Origin: a phage
Strand: one strand, 5' to 3'
DNA length: 64,000 nt
Assembly (NCBI GenBank): GCA_024672315.1
Contig: GCA_024672315.1_4714.1
Shown: in pieces, positions 3,876 through 57,967 of the stretch
Layout of the letters: each line of letters begins with the position of its first letter
Numbering within the stretch: the first letter of the stretch is position 1
Notes under the pieces: generated by a model
The model's database searches: none
What the model saw: only the letters and a program-made list of their open reading frames with translations
What the model was told of the DNA's origin: nothing
Translations under genes and position numbers: made by a program

Positions 3876-3897
3876 TAAAAACCTCAGCCCTTTAGAA

Positions 3898-4539
3898 TTA
3901 GATGTACTGCTTACCGCCCACGAAGGAAGTTAACCAGTTCCCGCTGACGAGTTGTGATACCCAGCCTGGAACGGCTCTACCATTCTGGCTCATGATGTTA
4001 CCACACCAACCAGGGAATCCGGGACGGATGTAATAGAAAGTTAAATTGTAGAGATGACAGTTCCATACCGCAACGTTATGTTTACCAGAAACCGCTTTAA
4101 AGACAAACGCGACAGGTAAAGGAGACGATAACAATTCGGTCACAGGGACGGCTGACCAGTTCGCATTCGCGTTCCACGGCTGCCAGGTATGACTACGCGA
4201 GTCGCAATATACGTTACCGTTGTTACCGCGCCCACCCGCATGCCACCACAGCGACGGACTCATGTTCTTAAGTGAGGTAAATTGTTGCGGTGGAATATTA
4301 GGAATAATAACAGGGTTGGTACCTTGTCCATGTTTCTTTTCTTTTGCGTTCACATACCCGCTTATCGATTCGAGGTATTTGGTACCAGGATAATTGTTCT
4401 GGACTTGTGTCGCAATATCACGAACGTCGAACGTCCAGCAGATCATGGTGTTATAGTAAGCGTCGGTGTTATCGTGCCATGAGTTACCATCTTGTAAACG
4501 TGCGCCGCTATTCGGTGTTTTATCTGTACTTATAGCCAT
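3898..4539 (-). CDS. hypothetical protein (213 aa), Gly/Trp/Asn-rich, possibly virion-associated
   Basis: ORF between tailspike and lipoprotein genes; 139-nt leader contains palindrome GTGAAC-N6-GTTCAC. Confidence 0.45.
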   Translation of the reverse strand: MAISTDKTPNSGARLQDGNSWHDNTDAYYNTMICWTFDVRDIATQVQNNYPGTKYLESISGYVNAKEKKHGQGTNPVIIPNIPPQQFTSLKNMSPSLWWHAGGRGNNGNVYCDSRSHTWQPWNANANWSAVPVTELLSSPLPVAFVFKAVSGKHNVAVWNCHLYNLTFYYIRPGFPGWCGNIMSQNGRAVPGWVSQLVSGNWLTSFVGGKQYI

Positions 4540-5223: not shown

Positions 5224-5277
5224 CGGATTTCCTTATGTGTTAACGGAAGTGATTTCCATAAGAATAATCGTCCGATG

Positions 5278-8200
5278 TTAATATCCCTGGTTTGTAGCTC
5301 CTGCTGTACCTGCGAACTTCAGCCATTGCCCTTCCGGCGACAATGCGCTCCGATAATGATACACTACAATCATATTTGTCAAACCGCTATAATCTGCTTT
5401 ATGTTGCGTAGTAATACGTATCGTATAATCCAACCCGTTAGGGAAGTTGAATACTTCAATGATCGTACCGGCGAGCTGGAGAGCACCGAACCCGGTGATT
5501 GTTCCTGTGCTTCCGGCGTTCATGCCCATCGCATCGCCGAATCCAATCCAGTAGCGTTTCCGAAACGCACCTTCGCTTTTCAGATAGTTGATGAAGTCAC
5601 TAAACGACATGTTCATACCACCAGATGAAAGCGTGGATGTTTTAATCGCCATGTTAGGGATATCGCTACTGGATGCTTTATATCCTAATTTCGTATCGAT
5701 TTCTGACTTCGTATACGTAGACAGATCCGCCGCAGTTAACGTGATATTCGCCGAACCATCGAACGCTTTCCCGTTGATCGTACGCGCAGTCCGCAACTTC
5801 GTTGCCGTTGCTGCGTTTCCTGAAGTATTCTGATTACCAGCGGTGTTGACACCTGGTAGGTTAATATTAGCGCTGCCGTCAAAAGACACTCCGCCTATTG
5901 TCCGGGCCGTCTTTAACTTGGTCGCTGTCGCCGCATTTCCTGTGGTATCTTGGTTACCTGTGGTATTAACACCAGGTAAGTTGATGTTTGCTGTACCGTT
6001 GAATGATACCCCACCTATCGTTCTTGCCGTTTGAAGCCTTGTCGCTGAAGCGGCATTACCCGTCGTGTTTTGGTTACCTGTTGCATTCACACCCGGGATA
6101 CTATCCTTAGATGTGTAAATCTGTGCCCATTCCGACCATTTCGCATCGGTTGTATCGCGACGTGAACGTAAATAAGCTGGAGCGTGCGCGCCCGAGGTAC
6201 CCGACCATCCAATGAGGATTTCACCTTCACCAACCGATGAAGCACCTTTAAGATGAACAATGTTACCGTAGGCTGTAGGGTATCCGTTATTGTACACTTC
6301 ATACATCTGAATACCCGTATTGCTGCCCTGGGTCGCATTAGCTAAAGCGGTGACCCGTCCCTTGGAAGCGAGCACGTTAATGCTAAAGCTAATATCAGTT
6401 GTACCGTCAAAGGCGACCCCATTAATCCTCCGCGCCGTTTGGAGTTTCGTGGCAGTAGCCGCATTACCAGAGGTACTCTGATTACCCGCTTTGTTCACAC
6501 CCGGTAAATCAATGTTGGCGGTCCCATCAAAGGACACACCCCCTATGGTTCTCGCCGTCCGAAGTTTTGTTGCTGAACCAGCGTTTCCGGAAGTGCTTTG
6601 ATTCCCCGACGCGTTGACACCCGGTAGGTTAATGCTCGCAGAACCATCAAAAGAAACTCCGCCGATCGTGATCGGTGTTTGCAGCTTCGTGGCTGTCGCA
6701 GCATTACCCGTCGTATTCTGATTGCCAACCGCATTAACGCCTGGTAATGCGATATCGGCCGTACCATCGAACGCAACACCACCGATTTTACGGGCGGTCT
6801 GTAGCTTGGTCGCTGTCGCCGCGTTGCCGCTGGTATTTTGCGTGCCCGCTTCATTTACGCCTGGTAAATCAATGTTCGCAGTACCGTCAAAAGAAACACC
6901 CCCGATGGTTCTCGCGGTCTGCAACTTCGTTGCACTTCCTGCGTTTCCGCTGGTGCTTTGATTTCCCGCTGCATTAACACCTGGTAGACTGATGCTGGCT
7001 GAACCATCGAAACTCACACCACCGATCGTAACAGCGGTTTTCAATTTCGTGGCGGTTGCTGCGTTACCGGTTGTATTTTGGTTGCCTGTCGCATTCACGC
7101 CAGGTAATGCAATATCCGCTGTTCCGTCAAAGGCAACGCCACCGATTTTACGTGCAGTTTGTAGCTTGGTTGCACTAGCAGCGTTACCGCTGGTATTCTG
7201 GGTGCCCGCTTTGTTAACACCGGGGAGATCGATGTTAGCAGAACCATCGAAGCTGACGCCACCTATCGTTCTTGCGGTAGCGAGTTTAGCTGCTGTGGCT
7301 GCATTATTACCCACTTTCAGCCAATCATCCCATGGACCATCCTGGCCGTTCCATGATGCCGTTAAACTACGTACGTAAATATTGCCGGTACGTACAGTGT
7401 AACGTTGCGTTCCACCGAATTGCCCGGTTGGGAGCACTTCAATGTAACCTGCGGCGTTTGCTTCAGGGAAATTGTGGGCGATGTCCGCGTTCGTTGTTAC
7501 TGGTTTAGACCAAATACCCACAGACGCTTCGACTGGGCCGAAGGTATTCAGATTTGCGTCTATCGCCATAGCGCCATTAAATTTCAGGTATGTCTCTGAC
7601 GATAACCCGATCGTTTTAGCAAACGCAGCTTTATCTACGATATCACTACCGTTATTCCCTGCTTGCAACGCCGTCTTAGCTGCCTTTATGGTTTCGGTCA
7701 ATCCAAGATACTGTAAGATCGCATCAACGCTTCCTTTGTTTAGCAGATTCAGACCTGTTGACGTTACGTTAGTTAGTCCGATTTGGTTCCGTCCAGTAAA
7801 ATAAGGGAGTTTATTCGCTTCTGTTGTTAGGTTAGACCACGCAGTCAACAACGCGTTCAAAGGCTGTTTACCCGCCAACGCATTGGTTACTGTCGTTGCG
7901 AAATTAGGATCGTTCCCTAAAGCTTGAGCCAGCTCATTAAGCGTATTTAGCGCTTCTGGAGACGAGTCGATCAGCGATGCGATAGCGCGCATCACAAATT
8001 CCGTGTTGGCAATCTGTCGACTGCTATCGTTCTCTGCAGCCGTAGGCGCTGCCGGGATACCGGTGAACACGGGGCTATTAAGATCTGCCTTGAGCGCGAT
8101 GAGACGTTTAAGTGCGTCGACATCGACTTTCAGGTTTTCCCACCCGATGAGAGAACCACCACTGCTGGCATGATAACGGTTATACCAGAAGTCACCGTTA

Positions 8201-15771: not shown

Positions 15772-16302
15772 TTAATGTTTGTTCTTTACGAACTCTACCG
15801 CTTCCAGAATAGCAGCGTTTAATCGTTGACCGCGTTCCTCCATTGTCCCGCCATCGCGATGTTTGAAATTAACCGAGTGGATATCCCAAGCCCAGTAATG
15901 TGTCTCCGGCGTGTCGTCTTCTTTGGTGGGATCGCTCAATCTGTTAACCCCGATTCGCCAAATATAATCAGCGGGTTGTCGTCGTAAGCATTCACCTATA
16001 GCGTCTATATAAGACAACCCTTCGGTCGTCACAGCGACGATAACGTGCGGATGCTTACGAACAACCTTTGTGCTTGTTTTCCCATCAACGACCACTTTAC
16101 GGGTTACATTATCGTGTCCTTCGCATGACCACATCGGTGCAATACCAGGCGCATCTAACAACGCCTGGCACGCGGGTAATATTCCGGGTTCAATGACTCC
16201 TTCCTTGATAGCCATCCATGCACGTTCTTTGAATATCGCTAATTGTTCTTCGCTGACAACAAAAGAAAACATAATTACTCCTTTCTGGTTCTTCCCCTCC
16301 AC
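15772..16302 (-). CDS. hypothetical protein (176 aa)
   Basis: ORF; start uncertain. Confidence 0.45.
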   Translation of the reverse strand: MEGKNQKGVIMFSFVVSEEQLAIFKERAWMAIKEGVIEPGILPACQALLDAPGIAPMWSCEGHDNVTRKVVVDGKTSTKVVRKHPHVIVAVTTEGLSYIDAIGECLRRQPADYIWRIGVNRLSDPTKEDDTPETHYWAWDIHSVNFKHRDGGTMEERGQRLNAAILEAVEFVKNKH

Positions 16303-21424: not shown

Positions 21425-21502
21425 GATTACTGTCCTTTTGAAATATGTTTAGATAAGGAGGATTTACCCGGTATTAAAAGTTATTTGGTGTATGTAATGT
21501 TT

Positions 21503-22102
21503 TTACTTAGGTTCCAGTATTGGTCCGAACAACCAGAATGTCAGACGCTGGTAAACCTGTTCGATGACTGCAGCTTCTGTTTGCTCTTCTAGTGCTTTCC
21601 CTTTCTTATGTTGTATTTCTGGCGGGATGTCGCCGTTGTAAACATACCCTGTTGAGAAGTCCCACGCCAACCGTTTACCGAAAGTGGGTAAGAACACCTC
21701 TTCGAATCGGAACGCTTTCGAATTCCAATGAAGCAGCTGATCGGATTCAACATGTAAGGCTTTATTACGTTTGCTTGGCGTGTTTCCGAAGTACTGAACG
21801 ATAGCTGATTTCATAACCCGATCGGCGAAGTCTTTGGCTTCGGCCTCATCGAGGGGAGGCAGACGATGTGATAGATTCAGCTTGCGTTGTTCAACATCAA
21901 TCTTACGCATCGCTTTAATCAAATCACCAGGAACGATTTTACCCTTATGGCCTTCCTGTCGGTGTACGAAACACCCCTGGAATAGCACGCAAAGTTCTTG
22001 AGGTGCGCTACTTTCCATTCGCCCATAAGCAACAATCACCGATCGACGACGATCAATAACTTCGCGGATAAACCGCGGCTCAGTAATACTCACCACTGTC
22101 AT
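21503..22102 (-). CDS. hypothetical protein (199 aa)
   Basis: ORF. Confidence 0.5.
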   Translation of the reverse strand: MTVVSITEPRFIREVIDRRRSVIVAYGRMESSAPQELCVLFQGCFVHRQEGHKGKIVPGDLIKAMRKIDVEQRKLNLSHRLPPLDEAEAKDFADRVMKSAIVQYFGNTPSKRNKALHVESDQLLHWNSKAFRFEEVFLPTFGKRLAWDFSTGYVYNGDIPPEIQHKKGKALEEQTEAAVIEQVYQRLTFWLFGPILEPK

Positions 22103-47181: not shown

Positions 47182-49263
47182 ATGTTGGATAGAATCAATC
47201 GTTTAATGAACCGAATAGCGGTTAAAAATCAGAGTAACAACACCGTGCATATCGGGGGTATCGATGCCTGGCGTCTTTCAGATGACATTCAGCGAATATG
47301 GGGTACCTCCCGATTTATGAAACATATGTTTCGTAATTTCTCTTCTAGTGGACTCAGTCTCCACAACTTTTACCTTCCCGATTTCGTTTATATTCTCGAA
47401 ACGATCATCGAAGCAAAGAATACCCGCAGTAATAAACGCATGCTGAAACACCTTATTGAGGTACTGCTGCAGGAAACCTGGTTGCAAAATACCACAATCG
47501 AGCAACCTGCAATCCTCGATAAAGCACGCATGAACAAAATGCTAACGCTCTCTTTGTTCGATTATCAAGATGAGTTTATCGACATCTATAACCGTAACGT
47601 ACCTAAATACCGACTGAAAGGATACGTGTGCGCAATGGGTGCCGGTGCGGGTAAAACAATCACCGCATTGGCTTTAAGCGCTGCAATGAACGTCGACGTA
47701 TTTGTGGTCTGCTGTCCTAAGAACACCATGCGTTCAGCATGGCAATCCGATGTAAACAAAGCCATCGTTGACCCTGCAACAGAAACCGCGTTCTGGTCAG
47801 ATACAATGCCCCCATCACAGCTGCAGAAAAGCGATAAGTATTATTTTCTGCATTACGAGTCGATGGGTTTATTAAACGATGTGATGATCAAGCATAAACG
47901 CACAGCGAAGCGCGTGTTGATCGTGGTTGACGAAAGCCATAACTTCAACGACAAGAACAGCCAACGTTCCCAACGACTGGTTGATCTCGTACAGACGATG
48001 CGTCAGACCATGAATGCGGATGTGCATGTCTTGTTTATGTCGGGTACGCCCGTTAAACAGATGGGTTCTGAGATGATCCCCTGTTTAGGTTGTATCGACC
48101 CGATGTTCCAAGGACAGGTGGTCGATAGCTTCAAAGCAATTTACGGTTTAACCAGCAGTCGCGCTAACGATATCCTCAGACATCGTCTTGGGTTCATGAT
48201 GCATGTCGTACCTAAAGAGGCTTACCGTAAAACCCGTCCGGAAGTTCAGGATGTTTACGTGAAGCTCCCTAACGGTAGCGATTATACCATCTCAAGTATC
48301 CGTGACGACATGGCGATATTTGTACGCGATCGGGCGAAGTATTACAAGGATAACTGGGGGCATTACAGAAAGATTTTTGATGATGCCTTGGACTACTATC
48401 GTAAGACTATTCGTACCGACGGAGAACGTAAAGAGCTATCTCGATACGAATCGATTGTTGCTCGTTTCCAGAAGGGTTACGACCCTGTCAGAGACAAAGA
48501 AGATGCGATGTTCTGCAACGCGTTTGAAAAACGTTCCATCATGCCGGTTCTTCCTTCTGATTTAAGGGTTGCTTTCAAAGACGCCAAGAGCGTCATCAAG
48601 TACGTTGGGTTGAAAATTCAGGGTGAAGCGTTGGCGCGTGTTCTAGGTGCAGCCCGCATTCGGTGTCATGTCGACATGGTGGAGTACATCGACTTCGAAG
48701 GGTACATCAACAACGCTGAAGCCAAAGTGTTGATCTTCACGTCGTACGTTCAGGTGGTTGAGCGCGTCGACAACATGCTTCGTGATGCGGGTTTCTTACC
48801 GGAACCCATTTACGGGAAGACCAACAAGAACATCAACCAGATACTTGCTCGTCTACGCGATGATCCTGACAGCGGTCCCGCTATCGCAACATTTGATAGC
48901 TTAGCTGAAGGGGTTCCAATGCTGATGTGTAATGTGGGTCTTTTCCTGAACAACCCATGGCGTTCATCCGATGAAATCCAAGCCATCAGTCGTCTCGATC
49001 GTGTAGGGCAAACGCAACCTGTTCGGATCTATCGTTTCATGTTGGATACAGGAAGCGAGGGTAACGTTTCTACACGTAGCCACGAAATCATGGAGTTAAG
49101 TCGACAGCTTGTTGAAGAAATCACGGGTGTCAAATACGTGGTGAACAAGCAAGACGATGTTAACTTGCAGGAAACGTTGGCGATGGAAGGATACGATCAA
49201 TACGTTACCGTAAACACCACGGAATACGATATTAAACCACGACCTGCGTTCTTGGAATGGTGA
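47182..49263 (+). CDS. SNF2-family ATP-dependent helicase (~693 aa)
   Basis: Motif I GAGAGKT, motif II VVDESHNF, SNF2-type motif VI QAISRLDRVGQTQPVRIYRF; start set to ATG 47182 (track start 47134 lies in hairpin). Confidence 0.7.
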   Translation: MLDRINRLMNRIAVKNQSNNTVHIGGIDAWRLSDDIQRIWGTSRFMKHMFRNFSSSGLSLHNFYLPDFVYILETIIEAKNTRSNKRMLKHLIEVLLQETWLQNTTIEQPAILDKARMNKMLTLSLFDYQDEFIDIYNRNVPKYRLKGYVCAMGAGAGKTITALALSAAMNVDVFVVCCPKNTMRSAWQSDVNKAIVDPATETAFWSDTMPPSQLQKSDKYYFLHYESMGLLNDVMIKHKRTAKRVLIVVDESHNFNDKNSQRSQRLVDLVQTMRQTMNADVHVLFMSGTPVKQMGSEMIPCLGCIDPMFQGQVVDSFKAIYGLTSSRANDILRHRLGFMMHVVPKEAYRKTRPEVQDVYVKLPNGSDYTISSIRDDMAIFVRDRAKYYKDNWGHYRKIFDDALDYYRKTIRTDGERKELSRYESIVARFQKGYDPVRDKEDAMFCNAFEKRSIMPVLPSDLRVAFKDAKSVIKYVGLKIQGEALARVLGAARIRCHVDMVEYIDFEGYINNAEAKVLIFTSYVQVVERVDNMLRDAGFLPEPIYGKTNKNINQILARLRDDPDSGPAIATFDSLAEGVPMLMCNVGLFLNNPWRSSDEIQAISRLDRVGQTQPVRIYRFMLDTGSEGNVSTRSHEIMELSRQLVEEITGVKYVVNKQDDVNLQETLAMEGYDQYVTVNTTEYDIKPRPAFLEW

Positions 49264-49268
49264 TTAAG

Positions 49269-49296
49269 AAGCTCTGTCTGACATCAGACAGAGCTT
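49269..49296 (+). terminator. 13-bp-stem hairpin after helicase stop
   Basis: aagctctgtctga-ca-tcagacagagctt followed by TATGTTG. Confidence 0.55.
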
Positions 49297-49363
49297 TATG
49301 TTGTATTTGTTGCAACAATCGTATGACGTATACGCGTTGTACTTATTTAATAAGGCAGAATAA

Positions 49364-50815
49364 ATGAAACTTAAACAAAGCTGGAAAGACGAACTTCTCG
49401 CGTTAGTAAACAGCAAAAACAGCTTACAGCTGACATTAGACGACGTAAAATTTGAACTAACTGAACCGGTAAGCGAAGTGCCCGGAACGGTTGTCGTTAC
49501 GATCAAACCGAACGATGATAGCCGTTACTTTAACGAGCAGTCTCTGACCTACATCCGTCGAGACATCGCTAAAAACTTCACCGGGATCCCGTTACGCGTT
49601 ATCGTTAAAAATGATACCGCTGTAAGGGATATCATCAACACGATCGCTGAACGTTACGGATTGGTATTTGACACAACCGTCGACTTCCTCGAATCCGAGC
49701 TGAATAAACAAATTACGTTCGAAGACACCGGTATTAAAGACATTACGGTTCCGGTTGCAAACACGTCTTATGTTTGGGCTGGTAATCTTCAGTTCAATAT
49801 CGCTAACGATACGTTGAGCTTGATTACGATCATCAAGCAAACCAATCTTACGAATCTGGTTTATCTGGATGGCGTTGAAGCTGACACATCGGGTTCGTTA
49901 CTGTTAGCAACGACCTCGGTTATCGGCGAAAACGGAAATGCCGAAACAACTGAAGGTGTCCTTGCCGCCACGTACTTCCAGAATATCCTGAACGTCATGG
50001 TTCGTTATGGTGATATTACCAGCGAACAAATGCAACAAGCAATGCAGACAATTAACGAAAGCGAAGACGCTCGTAGAGTAGAGGTGCGGTCATACGGTGA
50101 CGCCGAGTTACTGGTAACCACCAAGAAAGATTGGGTTATCGGTAGCCTTAAGGGTGCTATGGTTGTTGGTCACGCTTCACCTAAACCAATCCAATACATT
50201 CTTAAAACAAAAGGCGGCAGCATTATATTGTCATTAGATGGTTGGACAAATGTCAATATCGATTGGGGTGATGGGAATAAGACGACGGAGACCTCAGGCG
50301 ATAATGAATATCGACACAATTATGCGGACACTACAGAACGTACGATCGTCGCTACGGGTACCCCTACCAACGTTGAAGATACAGAGGTACAGCAAAGCTT
50401 CACCGGTGGTAACATCACTGAAATCGTTGACTGGAACAACGGATTACCTAAGGCCCCATCATTCCTTGCGGCGAACAGTTTAACTAAGGTTCCTGATTAT
50501 ATCCCGGCATACTGGACATCGTTAGAAGGTATGTTTACGCGATGCAGCGCTATTAACAACGTGAACATCACCAAATGGAACACCCGCAACATTACTTCAA
50601 TGAAGGACCTCTTCTACGGTTGCGCTACATTCAACCAACCGATCGGTTCGTGGGATGTTTCGTCTGTTAAGAATGCAGACAATATGTTGTCTGGGTGCTT
50701 CGCGTTCAATCAGGATCTGAGCGGTTGGACGTTCCCGGCAGGCACTTCACACGTCAACTACGACGCCATGACCGCCGCATGGCAGGCTGGTTATAAACCA
50801 CACTTCGCCGAGTAA
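49364..50815 (+). CDS. tail fiber protein (483 aa) with shared N-terminal fiber domain
   Basis: SWKDELLALVNSKNSLQLTLDDV...TYIRRDIAKNFTGIPLRVIVK matches the N-domain of three leftward paralogs. Confidence 0.65.
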   Translation: MKLKQSWKDELLALVNSKNSLQLTLDDVKFELTEPVSEVPGTVVVTIKPNDDSRYFNEQSLTYIRRDIAKNFTGIPLRVIVKNDTAVRDIINTIAERYGLVFDTTVDFLESELNKQITFEDTGIKDITVPVANTSYVWAGNLQFNIANDTLSLITIIKQTNLTNLVYLDGVEADTSGSLLLATTSVIGENGNAETTEGVLAATYFQNILNVMVRYGDITSEQMQQAMQTINESEDARRVEVRSYGDAELLVTTKKDWVIGSLKGAMVVGHASPKPIQYILKTKGGSIILSLDGWTNVNIDWGDGNKTTETSGDNEYRHNYADTTERTIVATGTPTNVEDTEVQQSFTGGNITEIVDWNNGLPKAPSFLAANSLTKVPDYIPAYWTSLEGMFTRCSAINNVNITKWNTRNITSMKDLFYGCATFNQPIGSWDVSSVKNADNMLSGCFAFNQDLSGWTFPAGTSHVNYDAMTAAWQAGYKPHFAE

Positions 50816-50835
50816 AAAAAAAATAGATAGTATAT

Positions 50836-50868
50836 CTTCCTCCCTACCCATAACGGGCGGGGAGGAAG
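50836..50868. terminator. bidirectional terminator at convergent junction
   Basis: cttcctccc-N13-gggaggaag; A9 run on + side gives T-tract for minus transcript; TTTATGTGG follows on + side. Confidence 0.65.
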
Positions 50869-50885
50869 GTTTATGTGGTTATGAC

Positions 50886-51224
50886 TTAGAACCAGAGTTC
50901 TTTCATGAAGTAGGCTTCCATATCGTAGATAAGCCACTCGTCAGGGATTTCTAAAGGATCGTCTTCGGTTAAGGTCAGCATGTGTAGGGCGAACGCACGC
51001 TTAATATCGTTCAGCAGTTTCTCGTCGTCGTAACCTTCAGGTAACTTACGGTCAACCAGCTGGGTTTGTTTATAGACATCGCGGAACGCTTCAGGGCTGT
51101 GTTTGTCCATCGGAAATTGTTCAGCGGCCTGAACCATCGAAAGCGTCCAGCTTACAACATTGTAACGCTCACCGTTAATTTCACTGAACTGATCATCGAT
51201 TAAACAGATTTGTTGTACGTTCAT
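50886..51224 (-). CDS. hypothetical protein (112 aa)
   Basis: ORF. Confidence 0.5.
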   Translation of the reverse strand: MNVQQICLIDDQFSEINGERYNVVSWTLSMVQAAEQFPMDKHSPEAFRDVYKQTQLVDRKLPEGYDDEKLLNDIKRAFALHMLTLTEDDPLEIPDEWLIYDMEAYFMKELWF

Positions 51225-52114
51225 TCATTTTCTCCATTCTTATCTTGATCGCAATCACACTCTTCGTTGTTCTTCTTACTTAAACGTAAGACACTGAGTG
51301 CAGCATGCTTAAGTTCTTGCAACGCGCTTTTCAGCTGACCTTCTTCATCGAAATCAAAATACTTCTCGTTGTAGCTTAACGCTGGAATCATATTTACGAG
51401 AGGTTCGATGGCAGGCATTAGCATTTCAATGACGACCTTAGGATCAACAAAGCGTTCAAACCCTTCAGGAAGTTTGCTCGCTACAACCTTATCGTTCTTG
51501 ATGTAGAATTTGTTCTTGAACAGATCGTCAAGAATAGCGTTCTCTTCATCCGTACGTTTTGCGTGAGGACGATCGATCATCTGCACAAACACGCCGCTCA
51601 ACGCTTCAGGCACGGTCGGATTTTCACGAAGATAAGTTCCAGCTGGAATTTCAATATCGATCTTCGTCCACTCAACAACCTGGTGGTCTCGCGTATAGAT
51701 GACGTCAACTTCCCATGCTAGACCATCAGCGCTTTCTACGGTGTAACGTGTTTTCGCCTGGCCTTCAGGAGCCATACGTTCGATCGCGTCAAACATCTCG
51801 ACTGGGATTTCGACTTCGCTTTCCGTTGCGTCACCTGGACCACGATACACCTTCGTGGTCATGATGTATTTCGGCTCTTCGTTATCGATCTGTATCGCAC
51901 GTGCGCGCACCTGACCTTTCACACCACCAACGGCCGTGTTATCAAACAACCATTGATGTTGCACCATATGTTCAATTTTTGATGCAACCTGACGAAGACG
52001 TTCAACACCGTCTTCAGCCAGTTTACCAAAGAAGACCAGCTCACGTTCCTGCTGTGTCTCACCACTTAACATCATTAAATTGGCGATTTGTTTCACGCCT
52101 CTTACTTGTGACAT
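51221..52114 (-). CDS. hypothetical protein (297 aa)
   Basis: ORF. Confidence 0.5.
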   Translation of the reverse strand: MSQVRGVKQIANLMMLSGETQQERELVFFGKLAEDGVERLRQVASKIEHMVQHQWLFDNTAVGGVKGQVRARAIQIDNEEPKYIMTTKVYRGPGDATESEVEIPVEMFDAIERMAPEGQAKTRYTVESADGLAWEVDVIYTRDHQVVEWTKIDIEIPAGTYLRENPTVPEALSGVFVQMIDRPHAKRTDEENAILDDLFKNKFYIKNDKVVASKLPEGFERFVDPKVVIEMLMPAIEPLVNMIPALSYNEKYFDFDEEGQLKSALQELKHAALSVLRLSKKNNEECDCDQDKNGENE

Positions 52115-52131
52115 ACATGCTCCGGTTATAA

Positions 52132-52149
52132 GGGCCTACATCGAGGCCC
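52132..52149 (-). terminator. hairpin
   Basis: gggcct-acatcg-aggccc after helicase stop; CTTATAACCGG follows on minus strand. Confidence 0.4.
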
Positions 52150-52182
52150 CTCATTGATTTTTGATTCCACCAAACGCTATCG

Positions 52183-54813
52183 TTACAATTCAAAATCTTC
52201 ATCGATAACACGCTGGGTAAGCACTTTGTCGCTGAAGAACTCCACCTTGCGCTGATGGTATTTACGGTGCGCTTCGATAGAAGTACATACCAGATACCAG
52301 AACGTTGGCGTCATTCCTTCAAACTTCCCTTTCAGCTGACGCAGTCGTCCCAACACCTGAATGTTACCGGTTCGTGACCCCATCGCTAGCGTCATGAACG
52401 TCATCACCAAGTCAGGAAGGTCGATACCTGTACCTGCTGATTTCACGGTTGTAACGCTAATATCGTTATCCAGCAAGACCATGAAATCTTCTTCAGCAGT
52501 ATAAGGACCGATCTCTAACTCAGGAATACGCTCACTGAGATAGTGCGACAACGACTTACACATATCAACGGTTGCACAATACACCAGCATCTTCATGCCT
52601 TCCTGATACTGGTTCATGAAACCCTTGATAATAACGGTATAGATGAAGTTAAAGTACGCGAGTTTGAGTTGCTTGTTCTTCATGATAGACTGTTCGAATA
52701 TCGTGTGTGAATAAGCTCCGCCAAACCCTTTGTATCTGACTTTATCTGTACTGCGTAGTCGATATGTTACCGCATTTACCGCAATGTATTTCTTGTATTC
52801 GCCTTTCGCATAACGGGCTTCTTTCGGATACATCAAATACAACATCTGTTCGATAAACGGATCATCGGATACCGCTGTTGCCGACAGATAAATGATTTCC
52901 GGAATATTGGCGTAACACTTGACCTTAAACAAGAAATGCAATGCTTCGTGACACTCGTCATGAATCAGCAAACCTATGCCGGTCTTTTCCCAAAACTCAG
53001 CGGGATGGAAGGCATATGGTGCAACGCAATTATTCTTCTCGTAGTCCGCAATGTAACGTTGGAACATGTTCAAGGAGAACAATGCGATTTTGAAGTCGAG
53101 CTCACCTTGTTCAACCAAGGTTTGAAACTCCAACATACTGTAACGAGGAATGTCGGGATGCGGTGGATCCTCCTTAGCGTTCCCGCGTATCTCGATAACG
53201 TCCCCTGGTTCCATCCCGAAGAAGTTCAGCAGTGAGCTTCGCCAACCTGGCATGTATCTCGGCGACAGAATGATACCCGTCCGTACACCACGTCTAAACA
53301 CGATTTCCTGTGACATCGCGGTGTTATGCGTGACGATAAAGTCTTTCACCACAAACAACGCTGAAGGATCATCGATCGTAATGCAACGTGCATCCGCAAC
53401 ACGGGAAGGTTTAATTGACAGTACACGTAGCATACTTTCGAAGTATTGTCCGTCAACAGGACAGCGTTCCAGCTTCTTCGGAAGCGTAACGATTTCATGC
53501 GGACGTTTATACCGTATCGTAACCATGTACGCTAGCCGTCCCTTATGTCTCTCCCCCTTGTAGGTGTAATACGGTTGTTTAATACGTAGACGAGCATACC
53601 CACCAATCGAACGAACCAAGTAGATAACGTCATCTGAAAGCTGTTTGCTCGAAGTACAGAAAACAATAGATCCTCCCTTCTCCACCGTTCCGTCGGTATC
53701 GATAAGACCTGCGAGTATTTCGCAACGTTGTCTGTGTGACGCCATCATGTACTGTTTCGGAACAAACTTCTCCCAGGATCGTTTACCCATCAACCCCAAC
53801 TGATCAAGCGCTAATGCCGTCTCTGACCGCCCACCGTAATTGATTAACGTTGCGGCAGGCGTCTTCGTTACCGCATAGTCGTATTTCTCGCGGTACTGTA
53901 TTTCACAGTCATCCGGAAGACGACTTAACACCTTATTCAAGATGAAATCGTCAGGAGTTGTGATTATCGGGGATGTTGATAAATGACCATCCCCTAACAG
54001 AACACCAAGCACGTACGGATCAAGCGGTAGATCTGCATCAGGAGTATGCTCAGACTCACAGTACGGAATGTAAAGTCGTTTATTGGACAGCTCCAGGATA
54101 CGAATCATCTCAAGTGTATTGATAACCCGCATGGGATAAGGATTGTTTTTGTCCCATCCCCAGTTAGGTCTCATACATGCCCAGAGATGCTCGCCGCAGG
54201 CTTCAACACGGCGACCGTCAGCAAAGACAATCTCATAGAGCTGTTTTGCTTTATGGTCGAAGATATTGGTTACCTTCGTTGGTCGGCCATTAGCAGCCGT
54301 GATGGTATCACCTATCTTCAAATCGCCTAATTGACGCCATCCGCCAGGGACTTTTACGAGCGTGGTAAGCGGATTTGCTTTACCCGACCCCGTTTGAGCG
54401 GTGTTTAGGCTCATTCTGAAGGGGGTATCCTTACCCCCGTCCATGTACTCCAACCATTCTTGCTGATCTTCACGCCATGGAAACTTCCATTTCTTTACGA
54501 ACTCCACTTCTTTACCTGGCACCGGATCGTGATAAACGATTTCCAACCACTCTTTTCGTATCCCTCGGGAAAAGATAAAATCCAAAAACGATTTCAATTG
54601 TTCACGGAGTAAGTATACCTCGCTATAATCGCTTCTCGCTGCGGCATACGTGTTTATGGTATCGGTAACCATTCTCCGTGTACGAGGGTCACGCCGTTTC
54701 CTCAGATGCAAACAACGGTCTCGAAGGTAATGGCCGATAAGATGGGCAAATCGAAGTCCGTATCCGCTCAGCCTCATGCCATGCGAGAAGACGTCGATAC
54801 GAGCTAACTTCAT
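52183..54813 (-). CDS. DExH-box SF2 helicase interrupted by an intein (876-aa precursor; ~524 aa after splicing)
   Basis: Motif I AQTGSGK|T split by insert, motif II LLIHDECHE, motif III YLSATAV, motif V TVKSAGTGIDLP, motif VI QVLGRLRQ. Confidence 0.7.
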   Translation of the reverse strand: MKLARIDVFSHGMRLSGYGLRFAHLIGHYLRDRCLHLRKRRDPRTRRMVTDTINTYAAARSDYSEVYLLREQLKSFLDFIFSRGIRKEWLEIVYHDPVPGKEVEFVKKWKFPWREDQQEWLEYMDGGKDTPFRMSLNTAQTGSGKANPLTTLVKVPGGWRQLGDLKIGDTITAANGRPTKVTNIFDHKAKQLYEIVFADGRRVEACGEHLWACMRPNWGWDKNNPYPMRVINTLEMIRILELSNKRLYIPYCESEHTPDADLPLDPYVLGVLLGDGHLSTSPIITTPDDFILNKVLSRLPDDCEIQYREKYDYAVTKTPAATLINYGGRSETALALDQLGLMGKRSWEKFVPKQYMMASHRQRCEILAGLIDTDGTVEKGGSIVFCTSSKQLSDDVIYLVRSIGGYARLRIKQPYYTYKGERHKGRLAYMVTIRYKRPHEIVTLPKKLERCPVDGQYFESMLRVLSIKPSRVADARCITIDDPSALFVVKDFIVTHNTAMSQEIVFRRGVRTGIILSPRYMPGWRSSLLNFFGMEPGDVIEIRGNAKEDPPHPDIPRYSMLEFQTLVEQGELDFKIALFSLNMFQRYIADYEKNNCVAPYAFHPAEFWEKTGIGLLIHDECHEALHFLFKVKCYANIPEIIYLSATAVSDDPFIEQMLYLMYPKEARYAKGEYKKYIAVNAVTYRLRSTDKVRYKGFGGAYSHTIFEQSIMKNKQLKLAYFNFIYTVIIKGFMNQYQEGMKMLVYCATVDMCKSLSHYLSERIPELEIGPYTAEEDFMVLLDNDISVTTVKSAGTGIDLPDLVMTFMTLAMGSRTGNIQVLGRLRQLKGKFEGMTPTFWYLVCTSIEAHRKYHQRKVEFFSDKVLTQRVIDEDFEL
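53323..54378 (-). other. intein with LAGLIDADG homing endonuclease domain (~352 aa) in helicase P-loop
   Basis: Begins ANPLTTLVKV after GSGK, ends ...FIVTHN before T; two LAGLIDADG motifs LGVLLGDGHLS and LAGLIDTDGTVEK; excision recreates AQTGSGKT. Confidence 0.65.
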
Positions 54814-56816
54814 AACGTGATTACATCCTCCGGTTTAGGTTCTTTACGCGGTAACAGCATGTAGTCGATCGGATGATCCGGCTTCATGGTTGGGATATAA
54901 CTGTTCGGGTTTTGGAACGCATCCAGCTGCTCTTGGTGAGCGAACTTCATACTCAAGGAGCGCATGTTCATGTTCTTCTTGAAGGTGCTGAAGTATCGTG
55001 TTGTTCCCTGTTTCGGCATGCGATAATCTTTCGTGTGTGGCGAACGAATCATGCTGGCGTAGAGAATAACATCGAGATGCGAAAGGTTCATTCGCAGACG
55101 CTGGGCACACAGACGATGCCAATAGTACAGCACGTTTGCAACTTCCTCCGGTGTTGCTTCGTCTTCCGAGAGGAATCCGGCACTGAAAGAACCTTTCCCG
55201 AATTTGAACTCACGTTCGATTTCTTTTGCGTACTCCATCATGTTTTTGTGGATTAACGGCATCTGGAATAACGTACGTGAATTGTCCCAATGTTTCAAGT
55301 CGAAAATCACAATCCCGTCAGACGTCACTTCCCAGCTATGGCGTTTGAGATAACGGATAAACGCTTTACTCGGTACAACAGGACGGCCGCAGAAATCGAA
55401 ATTGACTTTGAGTTTACGATAGCTTTCATCTTTCCTGTCGTAAATCTCCATATCGCAAAGCGTCATGTTAAACAGACGTTGCGGTATCAACGAACTGATT
55501 TCTTCCGCTTCCGCTACGTCGTACAACATGTTCGCAAGACCTAACTTCATCTTAATCAGCACATGTTTACCTTTCAGCTCACGTGCGAGTTTGATGTCGT
55601 TCATGTTCTGGCTGTAGCGAAGGATATGTTGATATTCCGGTGGGATTGGTGCTGTGGATACCGTTGACGAACCATCGTGGTGTTTGGTAGAAAGAATGTT
55701 CTGCGTTACCTGTTGCGAACAGGTACGCGCTGCACCGTCGCCGACATTATCAGTCAATGCGAAGTTATGACTTAATTCACCGTAACACGTCGTACATACC
55801 CCAGCAGGATCGGGATGATGACAATAGTTAACGGAGCGCATACGCACTGTGGTGCCGATCAATTCTTTCATGTGTGGCTGTATCGCTACCAACGAACCGT
55901 CATCACGAATAATGAATCGACCGTGGAAGCCACGCAGGTCAGTCTCATCACGGATTGGCATCGGGATGGTCTCTTTACTACCACAATCACCAGGATGGAG
56001 TCGTTGTACAACCGCTGTCGCTATCTGAAGTTCACGACCGAAATATTCAGACTTTTTAATCTGCTCTTTGTTGAACAGCAACGATTTCGCCGCAGAACGA
56101 CTTTCTTTCAAGCTGTCAGGAAGAGAGATCAAACCGGCTGCATACGACCGCATTACCGGATCGCGGAATATCTCGGAGTTAATATCGGTCAAGAATCCAC
56201 GCATCCCAATACACTGTAGCACCTGCCCAATCGAAACGTGTTCGGTTCTTACCGCACGTGCGATAGGGTTTGCATGTAACGTTTTATCGGTGCTCAGTAC
56301 CTTTGTCAGTTTCTTGTATGCGCTTTCGATACCTTCGCGGGTGGGTTCCGCTTCAGCGATGATTTTCTTAACTTCGGGGTGTACGGTAATCTGATAAAAA
56401 TCGTCCGCGCAAATCGTTGTTACGTATTCCTCCAACGCATACGTAAAGAAGTTATACACATTGTTAAACATATCGAACAGTGCTTTCCAGAGAACCTCAC
56501 GATTCTCTTGTGGATAAGCATACATGCATTGACGATACGCGGCGCTTTGCAACGCAACCGATGAACCCGCTGTGAACTTGCGTTTATCAACCAGGTTCTC
56601 TTTTGTCAATGGTGTCTCAGGATACATGCGATGCACAGACCAGTGCATGTAACTAAAGAAAATGCGTCGTGCACGCAATTCATGAACGCCATCGTCCATC
56701 TCGATATACACACGGTCATTAGGTTGTGCCCACTCGAACACCTCATCAACCGGCCAATGCATAAGCTCGCGTGCCCTCACACGACGTTTCGTGGTGGTTG
56801 TCTGTGTTGTAATCAT
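54810..56816 (-). CDS. multisubunit RNA polymerase beta'-like subunit fragment (668 aa)
   Basis: RSVNYCHHPDPAGVCTTCYG matches universal beta' segment (E. coli RSVVSCDTDFGVCAHCYG); upstream HPGDCGSKETIPMP matches EDDCGTHEGIMMTP; trigger-loop-like segment follows. Confidence 0.6.
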   Translation of the reverse strand: MITTQTTTTKRRVRARELMHWPVDEVFEWAQPNDRVYIEMDDGVHELRARRIFFSYMHWSVHRMYPETPLTKENLVDKRKFTAGSSVALQSAAYRQCMYAYPQENREVLWKALFDMFNNVYNFFTYALEEYVTTICADDFYQITVHPEVKKIIAEAEPTREGIESAYKKLTKVLSTDKTLHANPIARAVRTEHVSIGQVLQCIGMRGFLTDINSEIFRDPVMRSYAAGLISLPDSLKESRSAAKSLLFNKEQIKKSEYFGRELQIATAVVQRLHPGDCGSKETIPMPIRDETDLRGFHGRFIIRDDGSLVAIQPHMKELIGTTVRMRSVNYCHHPDPAGVCTTCYGELSHNFALTDNVGDGAARTCSQQVTQNILSTKHHDGSSTVSTAPIPPEYQHILRYSQNMNDIKLARELKGKHVLIKMKLGLANMLYDVAEAEEISSLIPQRLFNMTLCDMEIYDRKDESYRKLKVNFDFCGRPVVPSKAFIRYLKRHSWEVTSDGIVIFDLKHWDNSRTLFQMPLIHKNMMEYAKEIEREFKFGKGSFSAGFLSEDEATPEEVANVLYYWHRLCAQRLRMNLSHLDVILYASMIRSPHTKDYRMPKQGTTRYFSTFKKNMNMRSLSMKFAHQEQLDAFQNPNSYIPTMKPDHPIDYMLLPRKEPKPEDVITL

Positions 56817-56961
56817 TATTACTTTCCGATTTAAATGGTTTTATCATACGGTTTACCAATTCCGTTGGAATTTACTATCGCCATGATAGCATCGGGAATC
56901 CCTTCTCTTAGGTTATGTAGGTGTTAATATATCTCCACTGCCGGAGTAAAAGTCGGCAACA

Positions 56962-57447
56962 TTACCCGGCTTTCTGTCGTAGAGCGTACGGATCCATAGC
57001 GTCTGACATATCCGAAACAACCGTGAGAATGAAGCCCTTTATCTGTCTCACTTCGGTCACACGCAATCCTTTATCGTTACGATATACGTTTTCTTCACCA
57101 ACCAACTTTGGTCGGATAACATAAACGCCATCAACAAACGGGAATGTCGAATACGGATAAACACCAATAGAAATGATGTTTGGATGATCGCCTCGAAGGT
57201 CACGTCCGAACTTATCGACTCGACCATAAATCGTTCCATCCGCACCCTCCACTTCAATGAGGTCGTTACGAATATCCTGAAATAGCTGTTCTAAGGTGTT
57301 GGCAGGGTACGTATATGCGACGCCTAACGCTGGATCCTCGATCGTTTTGACATTGAATCCGTTAAGCCAAACAATCCGTTCATTCGCCCATGTTTCTTCA
57401 TATACCGTTAATCCATCGCCGTATATGTTGGCGTGTGCTATCTCCAT
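56962..57447 (-). CDS. hypothetical protein (161 aa)
   Basis: ORF. Confidence 0.5.
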   Translation of the reverse strand: MEIAHANIYGDGLTVYEETWANERIVWLNGFNVKTIEDPALGVAYTYPANTLEQLFQDIRNDLIEVEGADGTIYGRVDKFGRDLRGDHPNIISIGVYPYSTFPFVDGVYVIRPKLVGEENVYRNDKGLRVTEVRQIKGFILTVVSDMSDAMDPYALRQKAG

Positions 57448-57561
57448 AATCTCATTTCCTCTTCTACGTAGAAATAGATGACATGTTGGATATACGTTGC
57501 CTTTGCATATATTGCTTTATTTCCGTCAGAAATAACGGAAAATAAAAACAACAACATAGTT

Positions 57562-57591
57562 CCCTCCCACCTCCACATGGGAGAGGGAGGG
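57562..57591 (-). terminator. GC-rich hairpin
   Basis: ccctccc-N16-gggaggg; followed on minus strand by AACTATGTTG. Confidence 0.45.
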
Positions 57592-57604
57592 CTATACGTG
57601 TTTA

Positions 57605-57967
57605 TTACTCGATGCTGTCTTCTTCCGTATCTTCCTCTTCAGAACCATCGAATGTTTTCATTGTGGCGGTGGTATCCCAGTTAGCTGCGTAATCAGCCAT
57701 CGCTTCGCGCAGTGCTTCTTCACCAGCATCACCAGCCAGGTCAAGTACAACCAAACCCTGTGCGACGTTTTGAGCGACGGTATCAATAACGGTTGCATCT
57801 TCTTCAAAACTACGTACGGGTTCAATGGTACCTACATCAACAGCGTAGTTCGTGGTTGCTGTAAACACGGCGACTTGTAGCGCATTGCTATCTTCATCAT
57901 GCAGTGCTGCCTCAATACCGATTGGACGAGCCAGTTCTTGCAGTGTTAATTTGCGAATTAAGTTCAT
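57605..57967 (-). CDS. small acidic protein (120 aa), member of a 3-gene paralog set
   Basis: Acidic C-terminus DGSEEEDTEEDSIE; N-terminal NLIRKLTLQELAR resembles NNLILQDLAR of neighbour. Confidence 0.5.
   Translation of the reverse strand: MNLIRKLTLQELARPIGIEAALHDEDSNALQVAVFTATTNYAVDVGTIEPVRSFEEDATVIDTVAQNVAQGLVVLDLAGDAGEEALREAMADYAANWDTTATMKTFDGSEEEDTEEDSIE

Follow-up and report, generated by a model that had tools for sequence, protein, structure and literature searches.

Class 3 inteins have no nucleophile at residue 1 and carry a dispersed Trp, Cys and Thr (the WCT motif, at block positions B:12, F:4 and G:5), usually followed by Ser or Thr at the +1 position; their Cys F:4 is the nucleophile that forms a branched intermediate specific to the class (PMC5222942, PMC5050341, PMC3196547, PMC7664689). 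At +1, Ser or Thr is the rule and Cys is rare (PMC5222942). Among the examples given in PMC3196547, the inteins of Mycobacteriophage Bethlehem DnaB, Deinococcus radiodurans Snf2 and Mycobacteriophage Catera gp206 were shown by experiment to splice, and the characterisation of class 3 inteins in the P-loops of phage and bacterial helicases goes back to 2010. The P-loop GK/T (slashes mark insertion points here) counts as a "classic" intein insertion site, and class 1 and class 3 members have both been described among phage P-loop inteins (PMC5050341). The present analysis concerns such a site in a 64,000-nucleotide stretch of phage DNA, hereafter the window (assembly GCA_024672315.1, contig GCA_024672315.1_4714.1). 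On its minus strand, positions 52183 to 54813 encode a conserved jumbo-phage helicase of superfamily 2 (SF2), between whose Walker A Lys and Thr there very probably sits a full-length class 3 intein with a LAGLIDADG homing endonuclease. A class 3 intein in a phage P-loop is already well known, and nothing mechanistically new is found here.

As in the known class 3 inteins, the element of the window lacks a residue-1 nucleophile, has Trp B:12, Cys F:4 and Thr G:5, ends in His-Asn before a Ser/Thr-type +1 residue and is associated with a phage. The Msm, Mle and Mch DnaB-1 mini-inteins (6bs8, 6rix, 6riy) are also class 3 and splice in experiment, whereas the splicing of the window intein is predicted. 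In both cases the intein follows the Walker A Lys of its helicase host (in DnaB-1 the surrounding residues read FGVGK/.../STLGL; PMC5222942). However, sequence identity to DnaB-1 is low and the match lies mostly over blocks A/B and F/G; the mini-inteins are without endonuclease whereas the window intein is full-length, and its host is a jumbo-phage SF2 DExH helicase instead of DnaB or Snf2. The mycobacteriophage TerL1-a inteins (Kelley et al. 2016, PMC5050341) likewise interrupt a phage ATPase between Walker A Lys and Thr, carry a LAGLIDADG endonuclease and are sporadic among close relatives, but they belong to a different host protein and phage group, the window intein falling in the jumbo-phage/PhoH-associated branch of the family. 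PI-SceI, the yeast VMA1 intein, shares the two-part architecture, with a LAGLIDADG endonuclease set into a HINT splicing domain; unlike the window intein it is class 1 (Cys1, Cys+1), about 100 residues longer and equipped with an extra DNA-recognition region, and the identity between the two is 15-17%.

The insertion can be placed to the residue because a close relative has an empty site. Over about 56 kb the window is collinear with Escherichia phage vB_EcoM_Goslar at ~95% nucleotide identity, and Goslar is the only match to the region in the phage collection searched, the match coming in two pieces. Goslar, of the genus Goslarvirus, is a cultivable nucleus-forming jumbo phage of E. coli. Positions 49183-57813 of the window are 100% identical to a 39.7-kb Logan contig (run SRR13871333; L004), so the phage of the window was sampled in that run; the phage collection searched does not contain it. 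The helicase gene is laid out as follows.

52183-54813, minus strand: open reading frame (ORF) of the helicase precursor, 876 residues, 101.2 kDa; SF2 DExH helicase, ortholog of Goslar gp164
54379-54813, minus strand: N-extein, residues 1-145, whose last residues, AQTGSGK (54379-54399), begin the Walker A motif
53323-54378, minus strand: probable class 3 intein, Ala1 to Asn352, 352 residues, 40.0 kDa; placed by the exact gap against Goslar gp164, homologues, structural model and Foldseek
52183-53322, minus strand: C-extein, residues 498-876 and stop codon, with helicase motifs II, III, V and VI
52948-52959, minus strand: motif II, DECH, residue 619
52876-52884, minus strand: motif III, SAT, residue 644
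52420-52449, minus strand: motif V, TVKSAGTGID, residue 789
52339-52359, minus strand: motif VI, QVLGRLR, residue 819

Motif I (AQTGSGK) covers residues 139-145, the insert residues 146-497 (ANPL...FIVTHN, 352 residues), and Thr498 follows. A global alignment to Goslar gp164 leaves 512 of the 524 flanking residues identical (97.7%) and opens one gap of exactly 352 residues, at K145/T146, where the Goslar P-loop runs uninterrupted as AGTGSGKT. An earlier reading of the same DNA, made from its letters only and called here the sequence-only reading, had put the insert at 53323-54378 between Lys and Thr and stated that its removal recreates AQTGSGKT exactly. The single gap against the empty Goslar allele falls at those very junctions, and deletion of the insert restores the conserved motif in a 524-residue protein for which an intein-less ortholog is at hand. 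The same reading had described motifs II, III, V and VI as intact in the 876-residue ORF, and all four were located. Its estimate of ~58 kDa for the spliced product was slightly low, the computed masses being 101.2 kDa for the precursor, 61.2 kDa for the spliced helicase and 40.0 kDa for the free intein. Since the insert splits the Walker A motif, helicase activity would depend on splicing, as that reading had also proposed.

The host protein is placed in SF2 by motifs I, II, III, V and VI in their proper order together with a helicase profile match, the spliced sequence hitting PHROG 16 "DNA helicase" at E = 1.6e-26. When the intein is deleted in silico, a single ResIII match crosses the junction (residues 111-294), at a score below the Pfam threshold (17.1 against 22.5). 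The reading frame is unbroken across 876 codons. The ORF lies directly downstream of the gene for the RNA polymerase beta subunit and overlaps its stop codon; Goslar gp164 (524 residues, annotated "DNA helicase") holds the same position directly downstream of the beta-subunit gene. This helicase is kept in 290 phage records, essentially phiKZ-like jumbo phages, and most of the orthologs are uninterrupted.

With the insert as query, a search of 5.8 billion proteins returned 80 homologues, with E values down to 2e-77. That search missed the query's own protein, which an exact look-up found on the Logan contig, and absence there is no sign of rarity. Conservation was read from an alignment of 47 sequences, made of the window intein and 46 homologues covering the full intein, most of which show GK/A-x-P-L...IVTHN/T within the P-loops of PhoH-like proteins, helicases, terminases and other ATPases. 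The splicing blocks were recognised at the following positions.

54340-54378, minus strand: intein block A, ANPLTTLVKVPGG; begins with the non-nucleophilic Ala1
54181-54219, minus strand: intein block B, DGRRVEACGEHLW; His64 (B:10) and Trp66 (B:12), the Trp of WCT
53353-53388, minus strand: intein block F, RCITIDDPSALF; Cys332 (F:4), predicted initiating nucleophile of the class 3 pathway
53320-53343, minus strand: intein block G with the +1 residue, DFIVTHN/T; Thr350 (G:5), His351, Asn352, and Thr+1, which is the Walker A Thr

Across the 47 sequences H64 is conserved at 98%, W66 at 91%, C332 at 98%, T350 at 100%, and H351 and N352 at 98% each; the residues expected of splicing blocks A, B, F and G (His B:10, the penultimate His, the C-terminal Asn and Thr+1) are present and 98-100% conserved. 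Among solved structures, the insert is closest in sequence to the class 3 DnaB-1 mini-inteins of Mycobacterium chimaera and M. smegmatis (6rix, 6riy, 6bs8; E down to 1.9e-9), with the class 1 gp41-1 intein next in line. In the alignment to MchDnaB1 (6rix), His64 and Trp66 correspond to His65 and Trp67, Cys332 to Cys124, and Thr350-His351-Asn352 to Thr143-His144-Asn145, and these positions of MchDnaB1 form its catalytic triad plus Trp (PMC7664689). A check for class 3-type block residues, which the sequence-only reading had recommended, found Trp B:12, Cys F:4, Thr G:5 and Thr+1 (Thr498) all in place beside Ala1.

The Ala start had been taken by that reading to imply either a non-canonical splicing mechanism or an inactive, recently invaded element. 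The evidence favours the first, through the full conserved class 3 signature, and speaks against the second, given the same residues and the purifying selection described below. For phages, though, the predicted mechanism is nothing unusual, being the well-described class 3 pathway. Residue 1 is Ala, Gly, Ser or Glu among the homologues, and Ala1 is normal for this intein family, neither a defect nor a new mechanism.

Block B has a peculiarity of its own. At intein residues 61-66 (window 54181-54198, CGEHLW) the family has Cys at B:7, where canonical inteins have Thr (TxxH) and known class 3 inteins have Thr or Ala, and the window intein carries a further Cys at residue 68, two after Trp66. 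Redox or metal control of splicing has reportedly been observed in mycobacterial DnaB inteins; by analogy, extra cysteines near the catalytic Cys332 might confer a similar control here.

The predicted fold agrees with these assignments. AlphaFold, run on the family alignment, modelled the insert with a mean predicted local distance difference test score (pLDDT) of 94.6 and a predicted template modelling score (pTM) of 0.92. Compared with the PDB by Foldseek, the model matched best PI-SceI and other intein endonucleases (E ~1e-17, query-normalised template modelling score, TMq, 0.74-0.77); I-DmoI matched the endonuclease core and the class 3 DnaB mini-inteins matched the splicing core (target-normalised score, TMt, 0.75-0.84), so that a HINT fold is found on the predicted structure. 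The endonuclease part comprises the following features.

53449-54081 (approximate), minus strand: LAGLIDADG homing-endonuclease domain, intein residues ~100-310, from Pfam matches, conserved Asp residues and a fold like those of PI-SceI and I-DmoI
53986-54018, minus strand: LAGLIDADG motif 1, PYVLGVLLGDG (D130)
53689-53715, minus strand: LAGLIDADG motif 2, LAGLIDTDG (D229)

The two motifs announced by the sequence-only reading are real (ORF residues 266-276 and 367-375). Their acidic residues are strongly conserved, D130 being invariant and D229 kept in 96% of the family alignment, and the isolated intein exceeds the Pfam gathering thresholds for LAGLIDADG_3 (29.8 against 22.5) and Hom_end (22.6 against 21.1). 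With both acidic residues and family profile matches, this is a double-motif LAGLIDADG endonuclease by sequence. Taken together, the class 3 residues, the Pfam endonuclease models and the empty Goslar allele uphold the view, already that of the earlier reading, of an intein with a LAGLIDADG endonuclease inside a helicase P-loop. The exact gap against Goslar, the intein-bearing homologues and the two Pfam scores go well beyond what chance would give.

Selective constraint could be estimated from a second copy. On a metagenome contig (L005, ERZ1664509) the helicase gene holds this intein too, with 27 nucleotides (nt) differing inside it. These amount to 24 synonymous and 3 nonsynonymous codon differences, a ratio of nonsynonymous to synonymous change (pN/pS) of 0.04, and all 3 replacements are conservative. 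The exteins differ from those of Goslar by 114 synonymous and 12 nonsynonymous changes. The host gene and the intein, endonuclease domain included, have thus been under strong purifying selection, and the low pN/pS argues against both a dead insert and a decaying endonuclease. The notion of an inactive, recently invaded element was rejected on these grounds, the catalytic residues being conserved and pN/pS 0.04.

The comparisons show the exact insertion, the catalytic residues, the fold, the selective constraint, the sporadic distribution and the flanking conversion tract; splicing activity, DNA cleavage activity and target specificity we infer, the splicing steps being taken from the established class 3 pathway (PMC5222942, PMC7664689). 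Translation would give a 101.2-kDa precursor whose split P-loop is expected to leave it ATPase-dead. Cys332, with His64 activating it and Trp66 and Thr350 holding it in place, would attack the Lys145-Ala146 bond and generate a thioester-branched intermediate at block F, from which the N-extein would be transferred to the hydroxyl of Thr+1. Cyclisation of Asn352 would then release the 40.0-kDa intein, and an O-to-N acyl shift would leave a 61.2-kDa helicase with a whole AQTGSGKT loop. In a co-infection, the endonuclease of the freed intein would cut intein-less alleles such as that of Goslar, and the intein, along with extein DNA on its flanks, would be copied in as the cut is repaired from the genome that carries it, a process known as homing.

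The DNA beside the insertion site bears a mark of this kind. Two parts of a divergent tract adjoin the intein.

52903-53322, minus strand: C-extein tract adjoining the intein, 16-27% divergent from Goslar against a background of ~4-5%, nearly all of it synonymous
54379-54408, minus strand: short stretch of the tract on the N-extein side, where 6 of the 30 nt just upstream of the insertion differ, among them the change in the codon of a P-loop Gly-to-Gln difference

The first 405 nt of the gene differ from Goslar at 10 positions; from 30 nt upstream of the insertion to ~420 nt past it, divergence amounts to 16-27% per 100 nt and then returns to ~4-5%. Over the 56 kb aligned to Goslar, the tract adjoining the intein is among the most divergent 1% of 300-nt windows (overall median 4%), a level equalled only by the tail-fibre region and one other spot. 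The tract is common to all three intein-bearing Goslar-like genomes, namely the window, L005 and a third one, L009, described below. In its outer part (extein positions 540-765) these differ from one another by 0-2 nt per 45 nt, and by up to 5 in the next bin, while each is ~20-30% divergent from Goslar; elsewhere all four genomes are about equidistant. Directly at the site, L009 has a separate haplotype, which points to conversion having happened more than once. Rebecca and Ea35-70, two other phages taken up below, show a weaker asymmetry on the same side, with mismatches concentrated on the C-extein side (33 against 10 per 2.5 kb).

Nearly all changes in the tract being synonymous, it reflects a different history and not relaxed constraint. 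Relaxed constraint was rejected as the cause of the divergent flank, in view of the 114 synonymous against 12 nonsynonymous changes and of the near-identity of the tract among intein-bearing genomes. The tract is best read, from these comparisons, as a footprint of gene conversion or recombination tied to the intein, the pattern expected from homing with co-conversion. As a population signature of homing, we thus find sporadic presence of the intein among Goslar-like and Agricanvirus phages along with the divergent tract at the site.

Several points weigh against an intein that both splices and homes into Goslar-like alleles. As to homing, 8 of the 40 nt around the site differ between the window phage and Goslar, whose site may no longer be cleavable. 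The divergence may have either of two origins: the tract came in along with the intein, or a divergent phage passed an intein-less version of it to Goslar; no sequence fit to serve as an outgroup was found. As to splicing, the Pfam model Intein_splicing stays below threshold on the insert (14.7 against 35.8), and the HINT assignment therefore rests on the family alignment, the PDB matches and the predicted fold. Run on the whole ORF, Pfam and NCBIfam gave weak or partial matches only, with Intein_splicing again under threshold.

The distribution of the intein places the window within a wider family. Related inteins occur in 869 phage records, including some at the orthologous site in other jumbo phages, and homologues of the segment also occur in unrelated host proteins (PhoH, ClpX-like ATPases, terminases and SNF2 helicases). 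Beyond the two metagenomic twins, the nearest intein relatives are only 44% identical. Same-site class 3 inteins occur in the helicase orthologs of four other jumbo-phage genera, represented by Erwinia phage Rebecca, Salmonella phage JN03 (Seoulvirus), Aeromonas phage AerS_266 and Serratia phage 2050HW. They share with the window the gene, the GK/A...THN/T point, the class 3 residues and the LAGLIDADG architecture, and in Rebecca, JN03 and 2050HW the gene also lies downstream of that for the RNA polymerase beta subunit; they differ from it in genus and host and in sequence (39-44% intein identity), and the 2050HW copy is frameshifted. In Rebecca gp251 the site reads GKGK/ATTL...THN/T, with 43% identity and the same synteny, and the Rebecca relatives Ea35-70, Desertfox and Mortimer are without intein at the site. 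A scan of IMG/VR with exact intein peptide patterns found nothing, and a later scan with the C-extein found L009, which those patterns had missed; a scan of GTDB genomes found no relative.

In the Walker A motif, the intein-less Ea35-70 reads GKGK-S and the intein-bearing Rebecca GKGK-intein-T, so that the +1 residue differs between the alleles. The idea that the P-loop Gly-to-Gln difference goes with the presence of an intein was considered and rejected, as the intein-less Ea35-70 also has Gln.

Among Goslar-like phages the site exists in three states: empty (Goslar), full-length (the window, identical to L004, and L005) and endonuclease-less (L009). The last is a 237.5-kb Goslar-like genome (IMGVR_UViG_3300011560_000001) in which positions 1879-4140 encode a 753-residue helicase with a 229-residue intein at the identical K/T site. 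This intein retains Ala1, HLW, RCITV and THN/T and is without LAGLIDADG motifs or a Pfam endonuclease match; its splicing blocks are only ~50% identical to those of the window, and it may be either a decayed descendant or an independent invader. In Serratia phage 2050HW (NC_048668; L013, 1393-3955), the frame of the same-site intein is broken within the endonuclease domain, so that either the helicase gene is disrupted or the sequence contains an error. The public record of 2050HW splits the locus into gp330, "DarB-like antirestriction", and gp331, "DNA helicase".

These reduced alleles lend some weight to the idea that the intein of the window splices but has lost endonuclease activity, and is now immobile and vertically inherited in the late, "fixed" stage of the homing cycle. 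Endonuclease decay would then have a precedent at this very site, in the L009 intein that keeps the WCT residues and in the 2050HW frameshift. We consider this possible but doubtful: the window intein has kept both LAGLIDADG motifs whole, each with its conserved acidic residue, the Pfam endonuclease models score above threshold, and a whole-intein pN/pS as low as that against L005, with conservative replacements only, is unexpected for a decaying domain.

That the insert is a splicing-dead remnant, leaving the helicase as a pseudogene or as a two-domain fusion that never matures, is very unlikely. An Ala at residue 1 blocks splicing in canonical class 1 inteins, and a non-splicing, class 3-like intein pseudogene is documented in Arthrobacter (Arth_1007; PMC3196547); yet Arth_1007 is without Cys F:4, which the window intein has along with every other class 3 residue. 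The 876-codon ORF is moreover uninterrupted, its exteins have accumulated mostly synonymous changes, the helicase is kept in the 290 jumbo-phage records and the intein itself is constrained.

Hardly credible is splicing by a class 2-like route, with Thr+1 itself attacking the N-terminal junction, or by some undescribed mechanism in place of class 3. Ala1 is common to class 2 inteins, but these are known only from KlbA genes (PMC3196547) and the host here is a helicase; a complete WCT motif with Ser or Thr at +1 is the class 3 signature (PMC5222942), all of it present and conserved, and class 3 DnaB inteins lead the sequence matches in the PDB. A class 2 mechanism was rejected for the complete WCT motif and the non-KlbA host.

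The chance that the 352 residues form an integral, non-excised accessory domain of the helicase family is practically negligible, for beyond the uninterrupted reading frame nothing speaks for it, while the comparison with intein-less homologs proposed in the sequence-only reading shows the 97.7%-identical Goslar ortholog, its P-loop whole, and most other jumbo-phage orthologs to be without the segment, which itself recurs in the unrelated proteins named above.

In nucleus-forming phages, proteins are made in the cytoplasm and selectively imported into the phage nucleus. An endonuclease translated as part of the helicase might ride the import signal of its host protein into the phage nucleus, including that of a co-infecting relative, and would then act as a weapon of interference competition rather than as a purely selfish element; this speculative idea, reached by analogy, we hold to be improbable. 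If true, the three allelic states found in Goslar-like phages (empty, full and endonuclease-less) would stem from an arms race still under way at the site. The analogy is with gp210 of PhiPA3, an intron-encoded homing endonuclease that serves as a competition weapon in nucleus-forming phages (Birkholz et al. 2024, PMC11620839). Like the window intein, it occupies a conserved gene of the essential type in a jumbo phage that forms a nucleus, and is absent from a close relative; unlike it, gp210 is an HNH nickase that lies in a group I intron (RNA splicing) and targets an RNA polymerase gene. Our search of the literature on inteins in nucleus-forming phages found nothing specific, and the word intein is absent from a 2025 Annual Review (PMC12908238). 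With three allelic states at one site and a clear conversion tract, Goslar-like phages would be convenient for studying the intein homing cycle, and the cultivable Goslar could serve to ask whether intein endonucleases work across phage nuclei.

For annotation, the gene of the window should be described as a helicase containing a class 3 intein. The related inteins are not annotated as such in the records of Rebecca, JN03, AerS_266 and 2050HW, where the labels are helicase, "DarB-like antirestriction" or "DOD-type homing endonuclease", the last given to the whole helicase of AerS_266. In SPLA3 and SPLA5c the helicase is labelled "terminase large subunit". Some public records split intein-bearing genes in two, and naming follows the intein match or the reverse, so that the intein spreads misleading annotation.

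Elsewhere in the window, the comparison with Goslar brought out further differences. Three segments of Goslar (NC_048170, ~115267-115654, ~117703-118565 and ~121394-122106) have no counterpart at window positions ~21456-21503, ~23550 and ~26377; they correspond to gp108, parts of gp112/gp113 (acetyltransferase region) and gp120. The most divergent part of the window is the tail-fibre region at 5261-7050, the counterpart of Goslar gp090, where 5261-5736 have no Goslar match and divergence stays at 20-32% on to ~7050, which suggests a different receptor specificity. A third hot spot of divergence from Goslar lies at ~15900-16300, with 20-23% in 300-nt windows against the median of 4%.

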